Shown here: positions 3,028 through 39,723 of the stretch, in pieces | Position numbering within the stretch: the stretch's first letter is position 1 | How the letters are laid out: each line of letters begins with the position of its first letter | Assembly: GCA_947646915.1 (NCBI GenBank) | Contig: CANSII010000004.1 | Coordinates: forward strand, 3,214-67,213 | Source: an uncultured Clostridium sp. | GTDB lineage: Bacteria; Bacillota; Clostridia; TANB77; CAG-508 | Length of the DNA stretch: 64,000 bases | Reading direction: 5' to 3' | Translations under genes and position numbers: made by a program | The notes under the pieces: model-generated | Seen by the model: only the letters and a program-made list of their open reading frames with translations | Database searches by the model: none | Told to the model about the DNA's origin: nothing

Positions 3028-4212
3028 TTATTTATCTTGTAAGCATTCTATTCCTGGCAATTTCTTACCTTCTAAAAATTCAAGTGATGCTCCTCCACCT
3101 GTAGATATATGTGTCATTTTATCTGATAATCCTGCTTTTTCTACAGCTGCTCCTGAGTCTCCTCCTCCTATTATTGTTGTTGCATCTAATTCAGCTAATT
3201 CTTTTGCAATAGCATTTGTTCCTACTGCAAATTGATCAAATTCAAATAATCCAACTGGTCCATTCCATATTACTGTTTTTGCATTTTTTAATTCTTTTTT
3301 AAACATTTCAATTGTTTTTTCTCCAATGTCAAATCCTTCCCAATCATCAGGAATTTCTGTCCATGCAACTGTTTTACTTTCTGTATCTGGTTTAAATTCT
3401 TTTCCAACCTTTGTATCTACTGGTAATAGCAGTTTTACTCCTTTTTGTTTTGCTTTTTCCATTGCTTCTAATGCAAGATTAATTTTATCTACTTCACATA
3501 GTGAATTTCCTACATTATATCCTTGTGCTTTAAAAAATGTATATGCCATTCCTCCACCTATCATTAATGTATCAACTTTGTCTAATAAACTATCTATTAC
3601 TCCTATTTTGTCTGATACTTTTGCTCCTCCAAGTATTGCCATAAATGGTCTTTCTGGATTATTTATTGCATCTCCTAATACTTTTAATTCTTTTTCTATT
3701 AAAAATCCAGATACTGCTGGTATATATTCCGCAATTCCTGCTGTTGAAGCATGTGCTCTATGTGCTGCTCCAAATGCGTCATTTACAAAAATTTCTGCCA
3801 TTGTTGCTAATTCTTTTGCAAATTGTGGTTCATTATCTGTTTCTTCTCTATGGAATCTTACATTTTCAAGTAGTACTATTTCTCCTTCTTTTAAATTTGC
3901 TACTTTATTTTTGGCATCTTCTCCTATTACATCATTTGCCATTATTACTTCTTTTCCCAATAATTTTGATAATTCTTTTGCTACTGGTTTTAATGAATAT
4001 TCTGGTTTTACTTCTCCTTTTGGTCTTCCTAAGTGTGATGCTAATATTATTTTACAGTTTTGTTCTAATAAATATTTTATCGTTGGTAATGCTGCAACTA
4101 TTCTTGTATTGTCTGTTATGTTTTTGTTTTCGTCCATTGGTACATTAAAGTCACATCTTACAAATACTTTCTTTCCTTTTAATTCAATGTCTTTTACAGT
4201 TTTTTTATTCAT
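3028..4212 (-). CDS. pgk: phosphoglycerate kinase
   Basis: 394 aa. Motifs [39 protein letters not shown]. Directly upstream of tpiA. Confidence 0.97.
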
Positions 4213-4649
4213 TTTTAATCTTCCTTTCTTGGGAATAGAATTTTCGCTTTTTCCCCTTTTATTTTATTAGCTTTTCCAATTTTTTTTAGATAATTCCATT
4301 CTATACCAAAAAAGAATACTTTTCAAGTATTCTTTTAATATTTTCAAAATGTTTAAAATTAAACCCTTGATATTTATTACGATAAAATAGTATAATAGTA
4401 TTGGAGATTGATCTATCTAAGGTCTTAGCAGGTTTCTTTGAAAAGATAGTGATTTTTATACATAATCGCAAGATATTGAAATCATTATAGATAATTACAT
4501 AGACATACATAATTATAATAGTACTGATACAATAGAATTTATATCAAATAACCTTGTTTCTTCCATTATTTTTACCTCTTTTCTACACATAAATTAACTC
4601 CTTTAGTATCATTTCATCAGTAGAATTCTAAATATTATTCATAAGTCCA

Positions 4650-5661: not shown

Positions 5662-7248
5662 ATGCAACAAAAAAAGGGCTATGTAAGTTTTGTATTACAT
5701 GCACATCTTCCATTTATACATCATCCCGAAAGTGATGATTATTTAGAAGAATCATGGTTATATGAAGCTATCTCAGAAACATATATACCATTACTTACAA
5801 ATTTTAAAAAATTAGTTGATGAAGGTGTTAAATTTAGAATTACAATGTCTATTACTCCTCCTCTTCTATCCATGCTAGACAATAAACTTTTACAGAAAAA
5901 ATATATCAAATATTTAAAAAAATTAATTGAACTTTCAGAAAAAGAAGTTAAAAGAACTATTAAAGATAAAGAATTAAATAAATTATCACACTATTACCTT
6001 GATAGATATTCAAATGATTTACATTTATTTAAAGATGTTTATAAATGTGATTTAATCAGTCAATTTAAGCATTTTCAAGACATTGGAGTTTTAGAAATAA
6101 TCACATGTGGTGCAACACATGGTTATTTTCCTATATTATATGTAAATGAAAAAACTGTAAAAGCACAGATTGCTGTTGGTGTTAAAACATATGAAAAATA
6201 TTTTGGAAAAAAACCTCGTGGAATTTGGTTACCTGAATGTGGATATGTTCCTGAAGCTGATAAATATCTAAAAGAATTTGGTATAGAATATATAATAACA
6301 GAGTCACATGGAATTTTATATGCAGATCCTACACCTATATATGGAACATTTTCTCCTATTGTATCTCCTGAAGGTGTAATCGCATTTGGTCGTGATATTG
6401 AATCTTCAAGACAAGTATGGAGTTCAATAAATGGTTACCCTGGTGATTTTAATTATAGAGAGTTTTATCGTGATATTGGTTATGAAGCTGATTATGATTA
6501 TATAAAACCATATATTGCACACAATGGAGTTAGAGTTCATACTGGAATTAAATATCATAGAATTACTGGAAAAACCGAGTATAAAGAATATTATAATCTT
6601 AAATGGGCTATGGATTCTGCAGAAAAACAAGCAGGTCATTTTTTAGATTGTAGAACAAATCAAATTAATGATTTAGCAAAATATATGGATAAGCCTCCAA
6701 TAATCTTATGTCCTTATGATGCTGAACTTTATGGCCATTGGTGGTATGAAGGTCCATATTGGCTGTATATATTATTTAAAAAAATTTATTATGATGATTG
6801 TAATTTTGAATTGATAACACCTTCAGAATATATAGATAAATATCCTGAAATACAAGTATGTTCCCCTTGTCGTTCTAGTTGGGGTGCAAATGGATATAGT
6901 GAAGTATGGCTTAACCCATCAAATGATTATGCTCACAGGCATTTACATATTGCTGGTGATAGAATGTGTGAATTGGCTTATTTATATCCAAATGCAAAAG
7001 TTTTAAAGAAAAAAGCCTTAAATCAATGTGCTAGAGAATTATTACTAGCACAAAGTAGTGATTGGCTATTTATTATTACAAATGGTACAATGGTTGATTA
7101 TGCTAAAAAGCGTATTAAAGATCACATTGGTAGATTTACAAAATTATATAATCAAATAAAAAAAGATGAAATTGATGAAGAATTTTTAAAAGACATATCT
7201 AAAAAAGATTGTGTATTTTCTGATATAGATTACAATATTTATAATTAG
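5662..7248 (+). CDS. GH57-family 1,4-alpha-glucan branching enzyme (DUF1957 type)
   Basis: N-terminus MQQKKGYVSFVLHAHLPFIHHPE, plus CPYDAELYGHWWYEGPYWL and SSDWLFII motifs. Start set at ATG 5662 (RBS GAAGGGAGA); the ORF-track start at 5590 overlaps the upstream gene. Confidence 0.85.
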   Translation: MQQKKGYVSFVLHAHLPFIHHPESDDYLEESWLYEAISETYIPLLTNFKKLVDEGVKFRITMSITPPLLSMLDNKLLQKKYIKYLKKLIELSEKEVKRTIKDKELNKLSHYYLDRYSNDLHLFKDVYKCDLISQFKHFQDIGVLEIITCGATHGYFPILYVNEKTVKAQIAVGVKTYEKYFGKKPRGIWLPECGYVPEADKYLKEFGIEYIITESHGILYADPTPIYGTFSPIVSPEGVIAFGRDIESSRQVWSSINGYPGDFNYREFYRDIGYEADYDYIKPYIAHNGVRVHTGIKYHRITGKTEYKEYYNLKWAMDSAEKQAGHFLDCRTNQINDLAKYMDKPPIILCPYDAELYGHWWYEGPYWLYILFKKIYYDDCNFELITPSEYIDKYPEIQVCSPCRSSWGANGYSEVWLNPSNDYAHRHLHIAGDRMCELAYLYPNAKVLKKKALNQCARELLLAQSSDWLFIITNGTMVDYAKKRIKDHIGRFTKLYNQIKKDEIDEEFLKDISKKDCVFSDIDYNIYN

Positions 7249-11152: not shown

Positions 11153-12461
<1,309 letters not shown>

Positions 12462-31478: not shown

Positions 31479-32942
31479 TTATCTAATTTTATATTCCAAA
31501 TATACATTTTCATCAATCTGTTTTAATTTTTCTAGCTGCCTCTTAGTAATATTTATAACATTGCCACAACAAGGTTTAAAATCTTTATTACCATATACTA
31601 ACCAAATAATATTTTCCCTTTTTAAATCTTCTTTTGGCATTGTTCCAGGGCAAGGATAACCATCAGTAAAAACTATTTTATTTATCTCTCTTTTTTTGGT
31701 AAATGACCTAACTGCTAAATCCCAATCTTCTGTCCATGCTGAACTTCCACGAGCTTGCTCAGGAATAGTAAAGTTATCTATATCTTTTACATTTTTTATA
31801 TTTACAAATCCCCAAAATTTTTCATTGAAACATGCTACTCTTAATTTTGATTGTTTTAATAGTGGTTTCAATTGTCTTAAAAATGCTTTTACTAATTCTA
31901 AACTTACTGAACCTGAAACATCAATCATAATTTCTGTTTCAGCCTCATCTTCTATGTCATATTCTTCTAATCTATATGCATAATTATTTTCTGCAATAGA
32001 TCTACGATTACTCCAAATTGTTTCAGATTTTTCTATTTCTTTTCTTACCATAGTTTTCCAATCAATTTCTTGACTACTATGCCCTATATTTTCTAATTTA
32101 ATGTTTTTATCATTACTTATTATACTCTTTTTAGTCTTTTCACTATTTTTCTTAAATTTTTCTCTTTTTTCTTTTCTATTATTTTCAAATTCCTCTCTTT
32201 CATCAAAAGTTGTCCCTGTTTCATTTTCTACTTCATTTTTACTTGAAGCTTGTTCTTTTGATTTTTTTACTTGTTTTGAACTTTTTTCCATTTCTTTATC
32301 TTCTTGTTGTTGCTTCTTAAAAGCCTCCTCCCATAAACTATGGTCATCACCTTGCCCTTTTTCTTTATCCTGATCTTGCTTTTGTTCATTACCTTGCCCT
32401 TTTTCTTGCTCCTGATCTTGCTTTTGTTCATTACCTTGCCCGTTTTCTTGCTCCTGATCTTGCTTTTGTTCATTACCTTGCCCGTTTTCTTGCTCCTGAT
32501 CTTGCTTTTGTTCATTATTTTTTCTTTCTAATAATATCTGATAAAATTCCTCTGCTGAATAATTTAATGCTTCTGGCATATTTACATATCCTTTTTTAAC
32601 AGTAAAACCATCTCTTTCTAAATTTGCATTTATAATAGCATCAGTTGCTATATTCCAAAGCTCATCATCTCTCTTTTTCCCATTTTTATCCAATAATCTA
32701 TACATATGTAAAAATTTAATGTGCAATATTTCATGTGCAATTAAAAATAATTTATCATTTTCATTCAAACTTGCAAAATAGTTTGGATCAACATAAATAT
32801 TTTCTCCATCAGTTGCTGCAGTATGATATTTTAAGTTTTCACTATACTCAATATTGATATTAGCTACATCACTACCAAATCTTGGATATTTTGCTAACAT
32901 TTTTCGTTTAATATCATAAATCAAATCTGTATTAGTATCCAT
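31479..32942 (-). CDS. HExxH metallopeptidase-like + vWA (MIDAS DxSGS) protein, DUF2201-type partner of MoxR-like ATPases
   Basis: 487 aa, RBS AAGGAGG. N-terminal LIAHEILHIKFLH, a central E/K/Q-rich linker with four 14-aa repeats, and a C-terminal IMIDVSGSVS vWA-like domain. Confidence 0.75.
   Translation of the reverse strand: MDTNTDLIYDIKRKMLAKYPRFGSDVANINIEYSENLKYHTAATDGENIYVDPNYFASLNENDKLFLIAHEILHIKFLHMYRLLDKNGKKRDDELWNIATDAIINANLERDGFTVKKGYVNMPEALNYSAEEFYQILLERKNNEQKQDQEQENGQGNEQKQDQEQENGQGNEQKQDQEQEKGQGNEQKQDQDKEKGQGDDHSLWEEAFKKQQQEDKEMEKSSKQVKKSKEQASSKNEVENETGTTFDEREEFENNRKEKREKFKKNSEKTKKSIISNDKNIKLENIGHSSQEIDWKTMVRKEIEKSETIWSNRRSIAENNYAYRLEEYDIEDEAETEIMIDVSGSVSLELVKAFLRQLKPLLKQSKLRVACFNEKFWGFVNIKNVKDIDNFTIPEQARGSSAWTEDWDLAVRSFTKKREINKIVFTDGYPCPGTMPKEDLKRENIIWLVYGNKDFKPCCGNVINITKRQLEKLKQIDENVYLEYKIR
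32349..32516. repeat. 4 x 42-bp in-frame tandem repeat inside the vWA gene
   Basis: Unit ACCTTGCCC(T/G)TTTTCTTGCTCCTGATCTTGCTTTTGTTCATT at 32349, 32391, 32433 and 32475. Encodes (NEQKQDQEQENGQG)n on the minus strand. Confidence 0.9.
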
Positions 32943-32974
32943 TTTGTATTACCTCCTTAACAACATCTGTAATT

Positions 32975-33340
32975 TTAAAATGCAACTACACAAAAATGAT
33001 ATAGTTCTTTTGATATTTTTTTTAATGATTCTTTATCTTCAACAGTAAGGACTATAATCACATCTTTTGGTAAATTATAGCCATAATATTCTCTGTCTTT
33101 AACTATTTGGTAATATTTGTTTTGTGTATTTTCATCTATTTTATCTATTCCAATAATTATAAAATAATTTAATTCTTCATTATTAAATATTTTTTCTTTA
33201 AAATAGGTAATTAATTCATTATCATTTATATTTGCATTAATAACAACTTTTGAATTTAACTTATTATAATCTTCATTTGAAATTACAACACAAGTTGCAT
33301 TACAGCCTTTTTGTAATTCTATTAATTCTTTATCAATCAT
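32975..33340 (-). CDS. hypothetical protein (DGR/AAA+ operon member)
   Basis: 121 aa, RBS AGGAGA. Co-directional between the 152-aa ORF and the vWA gene. Confidence 0.5.
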   Translation of the reverse strand: MIDKELIELQKGCNATCVVISNEDYNKLNSKVVINANINDNELITYFKEKIFNNEELNYFIIIGIDKIDENTQNKYYQIVKDREYYGYNLPKDVIIVLTVEDKESLKKISKELYHFCVVAF

Positions 33341-33438
33341 CTTAAATTTTCTCTCCTTTTATATTTATTTTTACACTTTTTAATTTTAAAATTGCTACAC
33401 TTCACAGCCAATATTAGCCTTAATATAAAAAGTGTTTT

Positions 33439-33897
33439 CTATAATGTAAAAAAATTTAATATTTTGTTAATAACTTTTTTAAATAAACTTTCTTTATTAC
33501 AAATTGCCATACTTGTCCCTGTTTCTCTTACATTTTGAACTTTTACTAATTGCTGACTTTCTATTTTATCTTTAAAAATATTGTTCACATCATACTTTTC
33601 ATTTACTTCTACTTTTTCTATATGTTTTTCATGAATTAAATTTTTATATTTTATTCGTTCTGATTCATTGCACCACCAAGTAATATAAATAAATCCTAAA
33701 AGCTCTCTAGTTTGTTTTCTTAAATTAAAACCATCTAATGGATATTCATGATTAAAATTTACTTGATAACTTTTATTTGATATTTCTGTTAAAAACTTTA
33801 TAAAGCTTTGTGGTATTTTACTTACAGCGTCTTTATCTGTATGATTTAGTATATCTAATACTTCTACTGCTGCTTCACTATATTCAATATTTGTCAT
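33439..33897 (-). CDS. hypothetical protein (DGR/AAA+ operon member)
   Basis: 152 aa from ATG 33897 (GAGGTG RBS). Overlaps the stop of the AAA+ target gene by 14 nt, suggesting translational coupling. Confidence 0.5.
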   Translation of the reverse strand: MTNIEYSEAAVEVLDILNHTDKDAVSKIPQSFIKFLTEISNKSYQVNFNHEYPLDGFNLRKQTRELLGFIYITWWCNESERIKYKNLIHEKHIEKVEVNEKYDVNNIFKDKIESQQLVKVQNVRETGTSMAICNKESLFKKVINKILNFFTL

Positions 33898-36100
33898 TTT
33901 CTTCACCTCTATCTTTATCTTTTGTTAAAAAAGTATTATACATTTGTCCAATTTTTGTATATGATGATACTCCATCTTGCGCATATTCTTTTGTTTCGTT
34001 TTCATTATGTAATGATGAAGATAATTCTTGTAATTCACTTATTTTTTCCATTCTTCTTTCATCTTTTCCAGCCCAATATATATCATAAATTGACAAATAT
34101 TCTGGATCACAATATTTTCTAATAAATTCTCTACATACTTCAACTTGACTTTCATTAGCAGTTAATAATGCCATTATATATGCATATCTTTCATTTATAT
34201 TTTCAGGTAAATCTGCTTCACTATATCCTTTTCCGATTCCTTCTACTACTTCTTCTGGTGTTAATGTTGGAAGATTATAATAATCAAAAAACTCCTCTGC
34301 CCATTCTAAACGTAATTTTGAGTCTATTGATCTTTTAAGTATATCCTCAACATCTTTTCCTTCATATTTTCCTGATTCCAAGTTTTTTTCAAAATTATAT
34401 AATGTATTTGAAATTGATGCCCAACCACGTGGATCATTCGTCCTTCCCTTACAATCATTTTCATCAAGCTTTTGTTCTCCTACTTCAGGCTCTTCGTAAA
34501 AATATCCCATATTTTTGATATCTTCACTTTTTCCATTATTCAAATAATTTGATAATATATATCCTATAACCATTGGATGAATTTTTCGTGGAATTGCATA
34601 ATCTGTTATCCACTCTCCTACTTTTGGTTTCATATCTAATATATGGTCAAATCTCTTCTCTAATGGCTCTGCTAATTCTTCTGCAACATTTGAATATTTC
34701 TTTTGATTTCCAGTTGCTACAACTACTACATTATCTGGTAATTTTAATCCATTACCTATTTCTACTATTCTATTTAATACTAAGGTATATACTAAACTTT
34801 GAACAGCAGGTTTAACATTCAACAGCTCATCTAACAAAATTACTACTTTTTTATCACTTGTCTTAGATCTTTTATAAACTGTATCAGCTATTTTATATAT
34901 ATTCTGAATATTTTCTTCAATTAATTTTTTCTCTTCTTCAGTTGCTTCTTGCATAATAGCTGTTTTGGCAAAATCTGGTGGAATGCTTTGTCCTGTTTGT
35001 AAATTAGTTGAACCTACTACTTTTTCTGGAAACATGTTGTTTGTTAATTTCATATATATTAAATCTGGATATAATGATTTAATTCTTTCTGTTTTTCCTA
35101 TTCCAGATGGTCCTCTAAGTAATACTGATTCTCCTGATTCAATCCAATTATGTATTATTTCAGTATCAGTCATTTTAGTTCTATCAGTATAATTAGTTTT
35201 ATCTGGATTTAATTTCTCTATTCTAGACTTCTTTTTCTTATTTTCTTCTGTTTTCTCAGGTTCTTTTTCTAAACTTCCTATACTTTTTACCTGTTCTAAA
35301 TCTTTAGAAAAATTTTCATCCATAAATTCTTTTATAAATACTTTGTCAAAATTCTCTGTTTCATAATCACTTATCTCATTAAATTGTACACCTGCAAAAA
35401 TTATTTTATCAGCTAACATAATTCTTGCTTTTTCATCAACTAACCATTTTACTGGAGCAACTTCAATCCAAACATAATCTCCCCTATTATATTCTTCTCC
35501 ATTTGAAAGAGTAACTTTATTATAACATGAATTTGCTTTAACTCTTATATATCTCTTTCCATTATACTCATATTCTATATGAACTTGTGGTTCAAATGAT
35601 TCATCATATTCATCATATTTTTTTGAATCTGTTATATAACTATTTCCATTTAGTGAAATAGTTTTGTTTTTATATTCTTTTTCTAACTTTCTTTGCATGT
35701 CCTTTGAAGCAGCTTTTTGAGGATAATATCCATATTCTACTTCAAGGAAACCATCACTTGCTCTTCTCCCACTCTCTCCGTTCGTGGGGATTGATCTGAT
35801 TGATGAGAACGGTAAAGCTGGGCGTGCCCCAACATTACGTCTATCAACTCTACATCAAAGTCTAGAACCATTATAGTCAACCGCGCGCGCGTCGTGATCG
35901 TCATCATCAGATTTAGTCCAATATATGCCAGTTCTTCCCTCTAAAAAACTATCATCTCCTATATGATCATCATTAGAAACTATACCACCTAAAAGTATAG
36001 AAAAATCTGTGATTGCTGCCTTTACACCTCTTTTTTTTAATATATCTAATTGTTCATCCTCAAAGCATTGCTCTTGTGTCAAAAAAGTAAATTTTTCCAT
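33884..36100 (-). CDS. DGR target: N-terminal variable (VR-bearing) module fused to a MoxR/AAA_5-like AAA+ ATPase; one in-frame TGA at 35855..35857
   Basis: ORFs 35855..36100 (81 aa, strong AGGAGG RBS) and 33884..35698 (604 aa, no good RBS) are in the same frame. A single TGA and 52 open codons separate them. Walker A LLRGPSGIGKTE, Walker B VVILLDELLN. The VR covers codons 70-95. No signal peptide or TM. Confidence 0.85.
35818..35893 (-). repeat. DGR variable repeat (VR)
   Basis: 76-bp gapless match to 37513..37588. 9 of the 10 mismatches fall at TR adenines on the coding strand. Starts with GACGCGCGCGCGG and ends with GGGGCACGCCCAG. Confidence 0.9.
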
Positions 36101-36198
36101 ATCAATTTCCTCCTAATAATTATACTACTATATTTTTACAAAATTCTCTTTTTTATTTTTTTCCATTTTATCACATCTATTATTTTTTTGGAATAGTT

Positions 36199-37239
36199 TT
36201 ACATTTTTTTTTGTGGAAAAGTATCATTTTTTAATTTTTGACTTTCTTTTGTATCTTTTATATGATTATAAAAAGCATTTTTTCTAATGTAAACATATTC
36301 TTCATCAACAATATCTTTATTTCTCAATTTATTTAATACTTTTAAGTGTTTTATTAATCTTTGTTTAGATGATGCACGTAATTTTCTTGTTATACTACCA
36401 TTTTCATTTAAAATATGTCTATATCCCAAAAAGTCTATTCCATTTTTTACAATTCCTATTTGTGTTTTTTGATTAAGTTCCAATTTTAACTCTTGTTTAC
36501 ACTTTTCTTCAATCTTAAAAAGAGCATTTTGTAAAAAGCTCTTATCTCTATGAATTAATATCATATCATCCATATAACGAACATATCCTTTTACTCTTAA
36601 TTCCTCTTTAATAAATCTATCAATTACATTTAGATAAAAAAGTGCAAACCATTGACTTGATTGATTTCCAAGTGGTAATCCAATATCTGCATTATTAGGT
36701 TGCTCTTTTATTAATTTTTCTATTAACCACATCTCATCACTTGAAAATTTTATATTTTTCAATAAATTTAATAAAACTTCATGATTTATACTTTGAAAAT
36801 ACTTTTTAATGTCACATTTTAAAAAATAAATTTTATGATTTTGCTCTTTTCTATATTCATCTCTTAAAAACTTTTCTAGCCTTTTAATTGCAAATGTAGT
36901 CCCTTTACCTTTTCTACAAGCTGCATTATCAAATATTAGTTTTTTCTCTATTTTATGTTTTAATATTACATCACAAAAACATTTTATAACTACTCTATCT
37001 TTAAAAGGTAATGCTTCTATTATTCTTTCTTTTGGTTCATGTATTAAAAATACCTTATATTTTCCTAATTTATACTTTTTAGAAGTTATTTCTTGTATTA
37101 AATTACTAATATTAGTAGATAAACTTGCTTCAAATCTAATTACTTCCCCTTTATGTTGCTTTGATTTTCTACAGTCTTTATATGCTTCATATAAATTGTT
37201 AAATGTAAAAATTTCTTCTAAAATCATATTTAAGTTCAT
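36199..37239 (-). CDS. DGR-type reverse transcriptase
   Basis: 346 aa. RT motifs include LPLGNQSSQWFALFYLN (the DGR-characteristic G...SQ in motif 4) and YVRYMDDMIL (YxDD). No maturase or endonuclease domains. Confidence 0.93.
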   Translation of the reverse strand: MNLNMILEEIFTFNNLYEAYKDCRKSKQHKGEVIRFEASLSTNISNLIQEITSKKYKLGKYKVFLIHEPKERIIEALPFKDRVVIKCFCDVILKHKIEKKLIFDNAACRKGKGTTFAIKRLEKFLRDEYRKEQNHKIYFLKCDIKKYFQSINHEVLLNLLKNIKFSSDEMWLIEKLIKEQPNNADIGLPLGNQSSQWFALFYLNVIDRFIKEELRVKGYVRYMDDMILIHRDKSFLQNALFKIEEKCKQELKLELNQKTQIGIVKNGIDFLGYRHILNENGSITRKLRASSKQRLIKHLKVLNKLRNKDIVDEEYVYIRKNAFYNHIKDTKESQKLKNDTFPQKKM

Positions 37240-37600
37240 TCCCTTCGTTTGCGATTATTATTCTTTGAAAATAAAAAGTTTCATAGTGTTTCCTTCCCAA
37301 CACAATCAAAAAGAATGCCCCTTATAACTCACAAAAAATAGTTTTCTATTTGTTGTTTGTGTAAGCATTCATATTCTTCCACCGCACTATTTCTTTAGCG
37401 GTTAGAAAAGAGAAAAATTCCTTCACTTTAAAATACTGATATATTTACCTTAAAATATATTTCTCTGATTCTTTTTTAAACCCACTTTTAAAAGGATTTA
37501 CCAAAAGTGAATCTGGGCGAGCCCCAACATTACGTTTATTAACTTTATATCAATTTCTATTACCATTATAGTTAACCGCGCGCGCGTCAAAGCAGACGGG
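37240..37600 (-). ncRNA. DGR template RNA (TR 37513..37588 plus TR-RT spacer)
   Basis: Non-coding interval between avd and RT containing the TR. On the RNA, a hairpin CACTTTTGG...AAAAGTG (about 37484..37510) immediately follows the TR, and a second hairpin CCGC/GCGG lies near 37381..37405. Confidence 0.6.
37513..37588 (-). repeat. DGR template repeat (TR)
   Basis: GACGCGCGCGCGGTTAACTATAATGGTAATAGAAATTGATATAAAGTTAATAAACGTAATGTTGGGGCTCGCCCAG on the minus strand. Rich in AAY codons in the target frame. Confidence 0.9.
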
Positions 37601-37659
37601 GCAACAAAAAACCACTAAATAAATTTTTCTCTTAATTAAAAGCCTTTCAGCTTAAAATC

Positions 37660-38241
37660 CTAACTTCGTTTTTTCCATCTTTCATCATCACTCTTTTTCC
37701 ATGCTATTGTCAAGTTAATTGCTTCAGATAATTGTAATGAAATTTGCTTGTATTGTTTATTTAGTATACATCCAAAGTTTTCTGCTACCATAGAAACATA
37801 TCCTAATAATTTTAATTTTACTATTGCCTCTTTTTGAAGCTCTTCTCTTTTTACTTTCTTTTCTATTGCATCCATTCTAATAAAATTTGCTTCTAATAAT
37901 ACTTCTAATGTATCAAGACAATAGTTTTGCATTCTATTTACAAATACACCTCTATATTTTTTTGGCGATTTTTCTGTAACTGCAATTGTATATGCTGTTA
38001 GCTTCTTTACTACTGTTATTACCATCAAATCATTTGCATTAAATGGTATTTTATTTATTTCTTCTAACTCATTATCATTTGCTACACTTTCAGTAACTTG
38101 CTTTTTATTAAACCTTTTATTCTCTGCTGTAGCAATTGCTTGCTTAACAGCAACTTTATCTTCTACACTATTTTCAGTTCCATTGTAATTTTCTAATTTT
38201 TTAGGTATTTTCAAATTACTATCTCTACTTACTTGTATCAT
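37660..38241 (-). CDS. avd: DGR accessory variability determinant (Avd-like four-helix-bundle protein) with ~70-aa N-terminal extension
   Basis: 193 aa, RBS AAGGAG. The C-terminal ~120 aa (VVKKLTAYTIAVTEKSPKKYRGVFVNRMQNYCLDTLEVLLEAN...basic tail WKKSDDERWKKRS) look Avd-like. Located immediately 5' of the TR. Confidence 0.75.
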   Translation of the reverse strand: MIQVSRDSNLKIPKKLENYNGTENSVEDKVAVKQAIATAENKRFNKKQVTESVANDNELEEINKIPFNANDLMVITVVKKLTAYTIAVTEKSPKKYRGVFVNRMQNYCLDTLEVLLEANFIRMDAIEKKVKREELQKEAIVKLKLLGYVSMVAENFGCILNKQYKQISLQLSEAINLTIAWKKSDDERWKKRS

Positions 38242-38407: not shown

Positions 38408-38556
38408 AAAAGGTTATAAATATAATATTTAAATTGAGTTCGACCATGAGTTGTTTTTCACTTTAATCAATTATAGTGTGTATCTAAAATATGAATATTC
38501 AGTATATTAAACACCTTGGAGAAAGGAAATCTTAAATATTATATTTATAACCTTTT
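38408..38556 (+). repeat. Intergenic core-hairpin repeat, copy 9 (complete, Q-type arms)
   Basis: AAAAGGTTATAAATATAATATTTAAATTGAGTTCGACCATGAGTTG...TTATAGTGTGTATCTAAAATATGAATATTCAGTATATTAAACACCTTGGAGAAAGGAAATCTTAAATATTATATTTATAACCTTTT. Confidence 0.85.
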
Positions 38557-38604
38557 TATGTTAAGTTTAATATTGGCTGTGAATTGTAACAATCATTCTA
38601 AAAT

Positions 38605-39336: not shown

Positions 39337-39723
39337 TCCTAATAATATTAATTTGAAAAAACGAGTTTGACAGTGAGTCATTATTCACTCCAACCTTCTA
39401 TAGTGTGTATCTAAAATATGAATATTCCGTGTCTTAAACGCCTTGGAAAACGGAGTTTTTGAAAATTCATATTATTAGGATTTATAATATGAATTTGATA
39501 ATACGAGTTTGACAGTGAATCATTATTCACTCCAACCTTCTATAGTGTGTATCTAAAATATAAATATTCCGTGTCTTAAACGCTTTGAAAAACGGAGTTT
39601 TTGAAAATTCATATTATCAGGATTTATAATATGAATTTGATAATACGAGTTTGACAGTGAATCATTATTCACTCCAACCTTCTATAGTGTGTATCTATAT
39701 TATGAAAATTCATATTATTAGGA
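39337..39723 (+). repeat. Tandem array of three core-hairpin repeat units (copies 10-12, P-type arms, 142-bp period; third unit has a truncated core)
   Basis: Units begin at 39337, 39481 and 39623. Each carries (A/T)CGAGTTTGACAGTGA(G/A)TCATTATTCACTCCAACCTTCTATAGTGTGTATCTA. The first two continue to CGTGTCTTAAACGC(C/T)TTG(G/A)AAAACGGAGTTTTTGAAAATTCATATTAT. Confidence 0.9.

Follow-up and report, generated by a model that had tools for sequence, protein, structure and literature searches.

A stop codon in the template repeat of a diversity-generating retroelement from gut Clostridia and its predicted ON/OFF effect on a MoxR-type ATPase

Can the template of a diversity-generating retroelement (DGR) encode a stop codon for its own target gene, and what would follow for the target if it does? 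The question is raised by contig CANSII010000004.1 of an uncultured Clostridium sp. (assembly GCA_947646915.1), in the stretch of 64,000 nucleotides (positions 3,214 to 67,213) that was analyzed as a whole and is called the window here. The region 31479..38241 of the window contains an intact DGR, with an avd-like accessory gene, a template repeat (TR), and a reverse transcriptase (RT), together with a single target. The target is a cytoplasmic 738-codon protein, in which a short N-terminal variable domain is fused to a MoxR-type AAA+ ATPase. An in-frame TGA is present in the TR and at the same codon of the variable repeat (VR) of the target. We consider it likely that such a template-encoded stop with a mutable adenine would make homing an ON/OFF draw of the target. 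The repeats and the interrupted open reading frame (ORF) are located as follows; IMH stands for initiation of mutagenic homing.

37507..37588, minus: TR, the A-rich copy of an 82-nt repeat, intergenic, between avd and RT
37550..37552, minus: in-frame TGA of the TR (position X), in the frame of the AAY codons
37513..37525, minus: GC-rich 3' element of the TR, GGGGCTCGCCCAG, an IMH*-like boundary
35855..36100, minus: 5' part of the target, 81 codons and TGA, with an AGGAGG ribosome-binding site upstream
35812..35893, minus: VR, codons ~70-96 of the target
35855..35857, minus: target codon 82, TGA, the current OFF allele
35818..35830, minus: GC-rich 3' element of the VR, GGGGCACGCCCAG, IMH-like
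33884..35854, minus: remainder of the target frame, 656 codons and stop, containing the 604-aa ORF from the ATG at 35698

The stop codon of the target and of its template

On the minus strand the VR reads ctt-TGA-tgt at 35860..35852, with the TGA at 35857..35855, and the TR reads aat-TGA-tat at 37555..37547, with the TGA at 37552..37550. The original prediction had named these two stops and the mutagenized codons beside them (AAT to CTT, TAT to TGT), and both readings were reproduced; the two flanking changes are among the nine adenine substitutions described below. Translation of 36100..33884 gave 81 codons, the TGA, 656 open codons in the same frame, and a final TGA. The start of the 81-codon ORF has the context TAGGAGGAAATTGAT-ATG. 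The first in-frame ATG past the stop is codon 135, the start of the 604-aa ORF (33884..35698), and codons 83-134 contain no start. Only an abutting AAAGGAC precedes this ATG, and it offers no usable Shine-Dalgarno sequence. The read-through protein is spanned over 99%-100% of its length by more than 100 homologues (734-747 aa), in which the TGA column is occupied by a sense residue, usually Y or C, less often W, N, S, G, H, or F. For this reason, the 81-aa and 604-aa ORFs are regarded as one interrupted gene, and the earlier claims of a single frame and of a full-length fusion that needs a sense codon at this point hold. Among the alternative frames, +1 is open through the VR (56-aa ORF, 35737..35907) and closes before the ATPase, and the protein would be restored by neither a single nor a simple frameshift.

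TGA is a real stop in this genome, as originally proposed. Across the 28 window ORFs that reach 300 aa or more, 100 TGG codons and no in-frame TGA were counted, and two of these ORFs terminate in TGA; the G+C content of the window is 25.5%. Genetic code 4, in which TGA is read as Trp, was rejected from these counts. Scans of the 64-kb window for tRNA genes and Rfam elements gave no matches and no support for recoding.

The TR and VR, of which the window holds exactly one each, form an 82-nt direct repeat with 85% identity. In the reading frame set by the AAY codons and the flanking protein sequence, the TR is translated as DARAVNYNGNRN*YKVNKRNVG and contains 24 adenines; the VR is translated as DARAVDYNGSRL*CRVDRRNVG. 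The variable part of the VR carries nine substitutions across seven codons (AAC>GAC, AAT>TCT, AAT>CTT, TAT>TGT, AAA>AGA, AAT>GAT, and AAA>AGA), every one at a TR adenine, with 9 of the 24 adenines changed and no changes at other bases. The other three mismatches lie in or 3' of the GC-rich element, the TR and VR copies of which are one base apart (silent GCT/GCA). Homology stops just past this element, where the TR continues with ATTCAC and the VR with CTTTAC. The sequence GGGGCNCGCCCAG has only two sites in the window, the TR and the VR, with none expected. In addition to the TGA, one AGA and two AAA codons of the TR are in frame and mutable to stops.

The same pattern was found family-wide. 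In 22 TR-VR pairs, 244 of 557 TR adenines differ, vs 16 of 829 non-adenines (1.9%); the adenines were retained in 56% of cases and replaced by G in 21%, by C in 14%, and by T in 8%. At the family level, TR copies are invariant while the VRs vary between samples (L015/L073/L074 and L075-L087).

Two other assemblies, L067 and L068, are 99.94%-100% identical to the window and have the same VR, and the 81-aa part is called as a separate gene in both. VR-specific bases lie no more than 3 nt from the window TGA on either side (CTT-TGA-TGT vs AAT-TGA-TAT), and the TGA is therefore physically linked to the VR sequence. Judged from the sequence, the window strain is OFF at present.

Stop-bearing templates and target alleles in related loci

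The stop in the TR is shared by several diverged lineages and is not recent. Position X denotes the TR codon of GNRN-X that is aligned with the window TGA. TGA at position X recurs in L025, L070, L091, and L092, and is not a unique mutation of the window TR. The RT identity of the TGA-bearing relatives to the window is 83%-92% (L070, 92%; L091, 92%; L092, 83%), and the TRs of L067, L068, and L070 are identical to that of the window. The nearest diverged relative, L025, is syntenic, with 85%-94% nucleotide identity and a synonymous divergence (dS) of ~0.2-0.5 (~0.3 genome-wide); its TR and the window TR are 2-3 nt apart over ~96 nt, far under dS. Other TRs have TAA (L028, L072, and L090), TAC (L001, L022, L037, L045, and others), AAC (L002, L005, L015, L064, L075, L080, and others), or TGG (L021, L041, and L046) at position X. 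TAA was also found at other TR codons, namely the Lys position (L015/L073), the second variable codon (L021), and the first variable codon (L028); the TR of L028 contains two TAA codons, and its VR is absent from the contig. In total, 9 of ~19 distinct TRs of the family contain in-frame stops, or 5 of 15 if the window and three TRs found via truncated products are excluded. A TR pattern scan gave one match in viral contigs (L072) and 41 matches in metagenome contigs, of which nine were relevant and most others were unrelated and high-GC.

The VR alleles found under stop-bearing TRs are listed below.

TR TGA at X, window, L067, and L068: VR TGA, OFF
TR TGA at X, L091: VR TGA in a different allele, NFNGIRF*YRVDIRNVG, OFF
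TR TGA at X, L092: VR TGA and a 2-nt deletion, OFF
TR TGA at X assumed (TR off contig; proteins cluster with L025), L069 and L071: VR TGG (Trp), ON
TR TGA at X, L025: VR GGC (Gly), ON
TR TAA at the Lys position, L015: VR TAA, OFF
TR TAA at the Lys position, the same TR as in L015, L073: VR TTA (Leu), ON
TR TAA at the Lys position (TR off contig; RT identical to L073), L074: VR TAT (Tyr), 743 aa, ON
TR TAA at X, L072: VR TAC (Tyr), ON
TR TAA at the second variable codon, L021: VR TGA, OFF
TR TAA at X, L090: VR TGA and a 2-nt deletion, OFF

The L015, L073, and L074 loci have RTs with 98.5%-100% amino acid identity, so ON and OFF alleles at one hypermutable codon occur among near-identical genomes. 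Since their VRs also differ at many other adenine positions, they represent three independent homing products. The OFF allele of L091 is likewise an independent event, because its VR is quite different from that of the window. The TGG allele of L069 encodes a 734-aa target, and that of L071 runs off the contig end. The replacement of TAA by TGA in L021 and L090 shows that the stop codon's own adenine was mutagenized. Each nonsense codon observed in a VR coincides exactly with a stop codon of the TR. As a control, two lineages with stop-free TRs were inspected; identical RTs are accompanied there by eight or more different VR alleles, and no stop was seen among them.

When the 81-aa ORF was used as a query, 58 short N-terminal products were recovered. 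Of the clusters, 13 or more measure 80-81 aa and terminate exactly before position X; termination at the AGA, the Lys, or the second variable codon is less common, and some ten products are frameshifted. Position-X fragments that were traced to loci have a TR stop at X in three cases out of three. The +1-frame shift of the ~ten frameshifted products (including P0260, P0263, P0271, P0273, P0277, and P0283) lies inside the VR, and 2-nt deletions beside A-runs were seen in the VRs of L090 (~3730-3770) and L092 (~3031-3060). These deletions and frameshifted products may be due to RT slippage or to mis-assembly of mixed VR populations.

Relative to L025, the ratio of non-synonymous to synonymous divergence (dN/dS) is 0.19 for RT, 0.18 for avd, and 0.27 for the 656 target codons past the stop, which indicates that all three genes are under purifying selection. 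With three outgroups, 25-32 unique amino acid changes were counted in the window lineage vs 39-45 in L025, and there is no acceleration. The original prediction had named further disruption of the downstream frame as a sign of a pseudogene; none was seen in RT, avd, or the target.

Homing as a probable draw of ON and OFF alleles

How could a stop in the template act on the target? The TR carries TGA at the codon templating target codon 82, and the third base of this codon is an adenine. DGR reverse transcription miscopies template adenines, and each retrohoming event would write codon 82 as TGA, cutting the protein at 81 residues, as TGG (Trp), or as TGC/TGT (Cys). The same event would redraw the neighboring binding-site codons. 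This outcome had been foreseen in the original prediction and agrees with the TGG and TGA alleles of the relatives and the TAA/TTA/TAT alleles of the sister lineage. A stop at codon 82 would remove ~90% of the protein, including the beta-rich domain and the ATPase, and should be a true null since the VR sits at the N-terminus of the target. The stop would probably also lower the expression of coupled downstream genes, because the next gene overlaps the target end. A later homing event could restore ON from an OFF allele, since the whole VR is replaced, and any TR-encoded stop should be escapable because all three stop codons contain adenine. If the adenine retention of 56% seen in the selection-filtered natural VRs of the 22 pairs is taken to stand for the rate per event, homing from the window TR would yield TGA in roughly 56% of cases, TGG in ~21%, and TGC/TGT in ~22%. 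If stops arising from the AGA and two AAA codons are counted, the frame would be open in roughly 40% of events and OFF in ~60%. Homing activity in the window strain is itself inferred.

Alternatively, the DGR and its target could be in the course of being lost, with the TGA as a lesion and the 81-aa and 604-aa ORFs as pseudogene remnants. The window strain and the two near-identical assemblies are all OFF, and related OFF alleles have frameshifts too (L090, L092, L002, and L022), as decay would predict. However, the target is intact in its other 737 codons, as are RT and avd, the dN/dS values are low and the window lineage is not accelerated, the differences between the TR and the variable part of the VR are purely at adenines, and the TR stop is common to lineages with full-length targets (L025, L069, and L071). 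Decay is therefore quite improbable. An artefact of sequencing or assembly, for example, TR reads assembled into the VR, is still harder to sustain, and we give it hardly any weight. The window and all its relatives are metagenome assemblies, TR/VR repeats often confuse assemblers, and several contigs end at the TR or VR, but three assemblies share the same VR, VR-specific substitutions lie within 3 nt on either side of the TGA (CTTTGATGT), and independent OFF alleles at the same codon were obtained from other samples. A base-call error had already been considered unlikely in the original prediction, and the shared VR and its specific flanks bear this out.

The allele might also not be OFF if a functional ATPase were made despite the TGA, either by decoding of the codon (as selenocysteine or by near-cognate Trp read-through) or by translation of the 604-aa ORF alone. 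In low-GC Firmicutes, UGA is known to be read through as Trp at a low level, the homologues tolerate Trp and Cys in this column, and there are TGG alleles. Moreover, the sensor (279 aa) and ATPase (464 aa) are separate ORFs in eight of eight contigs of the P0190 lineage, and since they are naturally separate there, the two modules can work as two polypeptides. These points are outweighed by others, and we consider such expression unlikely. No in-frame TGA occurs in the 28 long ORFs vs 100 TGG, and the TAA of sister lineages, found at this codon or elsewhere in the VR, cannot stand for Sec or Trp. A selenocysteine insertion (SECIS) element would have to lie inside hypervariable sequence, and the lack of a tRNA or Rfam element within 64 kb, weak evidence in itself, points the same way; on these grounds, a selenoprotein or programmed UGA recoding finds no support in the window. 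As for independent translation, the 604-aa ORF starts inside the beta-rich domain, at codon 135, without a usable Shine-Dalgarno sequence, and no in-frame start is available between the stop and this codon.

Several observations weigh against homing as an ON/OFF draw. The VR is identical in all three window-strain assemblies, the independence of which as samples is not demonstrable, and switching within the window strain was not seen. All VRs are consensus sequences of metagenome assemblies and have already been filtered by selection, and L090, L091, and L092 were found via the search for truncated products, which biases them to OFF. The OFF alleles of L090 and L092 also bear 2-nt deletions, which could reflect decay, RT slippage, or mis-assembly of mixed populations. 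The GGC of L025 is unreachable from TGA by adenine changes alone and needs T>G. This T>G on the first base of the stop (VR ~6306-6308 vs TR ~4534-4536) is one of the 16 non-adenine differences among 829. Finally, the persistence of stops in the TRs can also be explained by weak second-order selection, with no benefit needed. Where the genome is AT-rich and the TR is untranslated, TGA easily arises from TGG by G>A, or TAA from TAC by C>A, and drift could keep such a stop because it would cost no more than a ~two-fold drop in productive homing.

That the stops in family TRs are kept by selection, making the DGR a combined diversifier and phase-variation device, is possible, and we propose it only tentatively. 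Each homing event would then bet both on a new specificity and on whether a costly or potentially self-reactive MoxR-type sensor-ATPase is expressed. TGA or TAA at position X would also open access to Trp/Cys or Phe/Tyr/Trp, respectively, and an advantage could lie in hedging the bet on a costly sensor or in this access to Trp/Cys. The recurrence of stops at X, their persistence across 83%-92% RT identity, and the many OFF consensus alleles fit a low cost and a benefit alike.

The cassette and its relation to known systems

The remaining features of the cassette are as follows.

37660..38241, minus: avd-like accessory gene, 193 aa, upstream of TR and RT, the canonical position
36199..37239, minus: DGR reverse transcriptase, 342-346 aa, ORF intact, YMDD and LGNQSSQ motifs readable
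34649..35125, minus: AAA_5 (MoxR/dynein-type) ATPase domain of the target, read-through residues 326-484
33439..33906, minus: downstream gene, 152-155 aa, overlapping the target end, conserved in L025, L069, L074, and L075
32975..33340, minus: downstream gene, 121 aa, at the same position in related loci
31479..32942, minus: partner protein, 487 aa, with a DUF2201_N metallopeptidase-like domain and a C-terminal DVSGS (MIDAS-like, metal ion-dependent adhesion site) motif

The RT matched Pfam RVT_1 (E 1e-19) and the PADLOC RT profile (E 8e-37), has 3,815 homologues at E<=1e-30, and adjoins the TR or the target VR in every fetched related locus with RT flanks. The bAvd match of the avd-like ORF is weak (E 0.004, 18 bits, under the 40-bit Pfam cut-off); the ORF is kept at the canonical position in all related loci with 67%-100% amino acid identity. 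The AAA_5 match of the target (E 7.9e-07) is better than the curated cut-off. The partner protein matched Pfam DUF2201_N (E 6e-22), and its gene is conserved downstream in related loci; a Pfam vWA match was not found despite the DVSGS motif. A tandem low-complexity repeat, QKQDQEQENGQGNE, with ~4 copies around 32267-32531, was seen in this protein, and the L067 version is shorter (473 vs 487 aa). The 152-155-aa gene, which had no family match, is probably translationally coupled to the target, and the 121-aa gene gave nothing beyond a sub-threshold match to DUF5887. Besides RT, PADLOC found in the cassette only a partial or generic AAA match (DolB) and no complete system.

The variable domain matches no family in Pfam or the Protein Data Bank (PDB). 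The N-terminal 270 aa of the target gave zero Pfam matches at E<=10, a likeness of the G-x-RPAL motif to DUF6273 was not confirmed, and a profile search of the PDB gave no meaningful match. An AlphaFold2 model of P0001 from a 49-sequence alignment had a mean predicted confidence (pLDDT) of 43, with ~25-30 over the variable domain, too poor for use.

Several further arrangements were observed in the window and its relatives. A 25-nt motif, ATTCATATTTTAGATACACACTATA, has five minus-strand copies (38472-38496, 39399-39423, 39541-39565, 39683-39707, and 12380-12404), with none expected. Three copies lie 142 nt apart upstream of a 258-aa ORF and one ~230 nt upstream of avd; the copies are within 110-nt direct repeats flanked by 25-45-nt inverted repeats. 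The motif may represent a promoter or operator present in several copies, or else a small repeat element of intergenic regions. A promoter and terminator scan gave no enrichment over shuffled sequences. A 42-nt inverted-repeat pair (33391-33432 and 38552-38593, 88% complementary), the 16-nt core of which occurs at these two sites only, brackets avd-TR-RT-target and the 155-aa gene; these repeats may be cassette boundaries or paired regulatory sites. In the P0190 RT lineage (L080-L086, e.g., L080 4131-6348), the ORF with the variable and beta parts overlaps that of the AAA+ domain, and the modules can be separate polypeptides or joined by a frameshift. Two tandem paralogous targets ~3 kb apart, each with its own VR, were found in L001, L002, L003, L004, L005, L012, L016, and L017, and the VRs of both paralogues are identical in L003, L004, and L017. 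In one sample (L073 111-2425), the L015-type DGR lies beside IS21-like transposition genes and a ToxN toxin gene, which suggests that the cassette can sit in mobile or defense-island contexts.

How does this DGR compare with those already described? A DGR-type RT beside the repeat, adenine-specific differences between TR and VR, and, at the family level, an invariant TR with varying VRs are all present; among the defining features, only the Avd match is sub-threshold. The canonical DGRs (BPP-1 Mtd, Treponema TvpA, Legionella LdtA, and the Bacteroides pilus) consist of the same parts (TR, RT, VR-target, and, if the avd-like ORF is counted, avd) and likewise have adenine-specific changes, dominant AAY codons, a GC-rich 3' boundary, and an invariant TR. 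Unlike them, the window TR has an in-frame nonsense codon as well as stop-prone AGA and AAA. Their VR is C-terminal, whereas that of the window target is near the N-terminus (codons ~70-96 of 738); N-terminal VRs accounted for 3 of 372 in one survey (PMC5758913). Also unlike canonical DGR targets, the window variable domain matches no Pfam or PDB family.

Avoidance of nonsense codons in the TR has been stated as a general property of DGRs, not as a strict definition, and is absent from the window TR. The literature agrees with the original statement that TRs are thought to avoid stops: TR codon usage was described as preventing nonsense codons (Macadangdang et al., preprint), and the position of adenines in TRs as restricted in a way that keeps stops out (Dore et al. 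2024, PMC10907252). Avoidance of nonsense codons in TRs is likewise reported by the papers on BPP-1 reconstitution and on DGRec, the latter noting that stop-prone codons are strongly depleted in natural TRs. Lys codons in Treponema TRs have been named as an exception. The large survey mentioned above (PMC5758913) discards elements with premature stops as dead, and such filtering would hide cases like the window DGR. An engineered BPP-1 reporter whose TR contains TAATAA (PMC12875486) has shown by experiment that stop-codon adenines of a TR are mutagenized and passed on to the target. This reporter was synthetic and used the gene's terminal codons as a read-out, whereas the stop of the window is natural, internal, and part of a conserved TR. 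In the open-access literature searched, no account was found of internal stops encoded by natural TRs or of ON/OFF switching driven by a DGR.

Among known DGR sensors, the MoxR/vWA and STAND NTPase systems (Kaur et al. 2020, PMC7159879; PMC10907252) also have a cytoplasmic NTPase-linked target. The likeness may extend to the adjoining vWA-like/peptidase partner, and also covers the presumed role as a ligand sensor and the duplicated targets common in related loci. The differences are that here the variable domain is fused N-terminally to a MoxR-type ATPase and is not a recognizable C-type lectin, and that the hosts of the window family are low-GC gut Clostridia. With phase-variable loci based on slipped-strand repeats or invertible segments, the window locus shares a local hypermutation device dedicated to one gene and, as predicted, stochastic, heritable, and reversible ON/OFF switching via premature termination. 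In contrast to slippage or inversion, the toggle here would be a template-directed cDNA rewrite by reverse transcriptase, and ON/OFF would be redrawn together with the binding-site sequence.

The usual claim that DGR templates avoid stop codons is contradicted by the window family. A stop can sit in a template, outlast substantial divergence beside a selected RT and target, and give rise to null as well as full-length alleles. In terms of annotation, the gene calls of 81 aa and 604 aa represent a single gene. The system at stake is a putative MoxR-type conflict system of gut Clostridia. If the finding is general, some DGR targets listed as "inactivated" in databases would be reversible OFF states and not pseudogenes, and the cost-benefit of a hypervariable cytoplasmic sensor could be tested by counting TGA vs TGG/TGY in reads. 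DGRs would then act as phase-variation devices besides being diversifiers, and, should the stops indeed be kept by selection, this would be reverse-transcriptase-driven phase variation, a mode so far undescribed.

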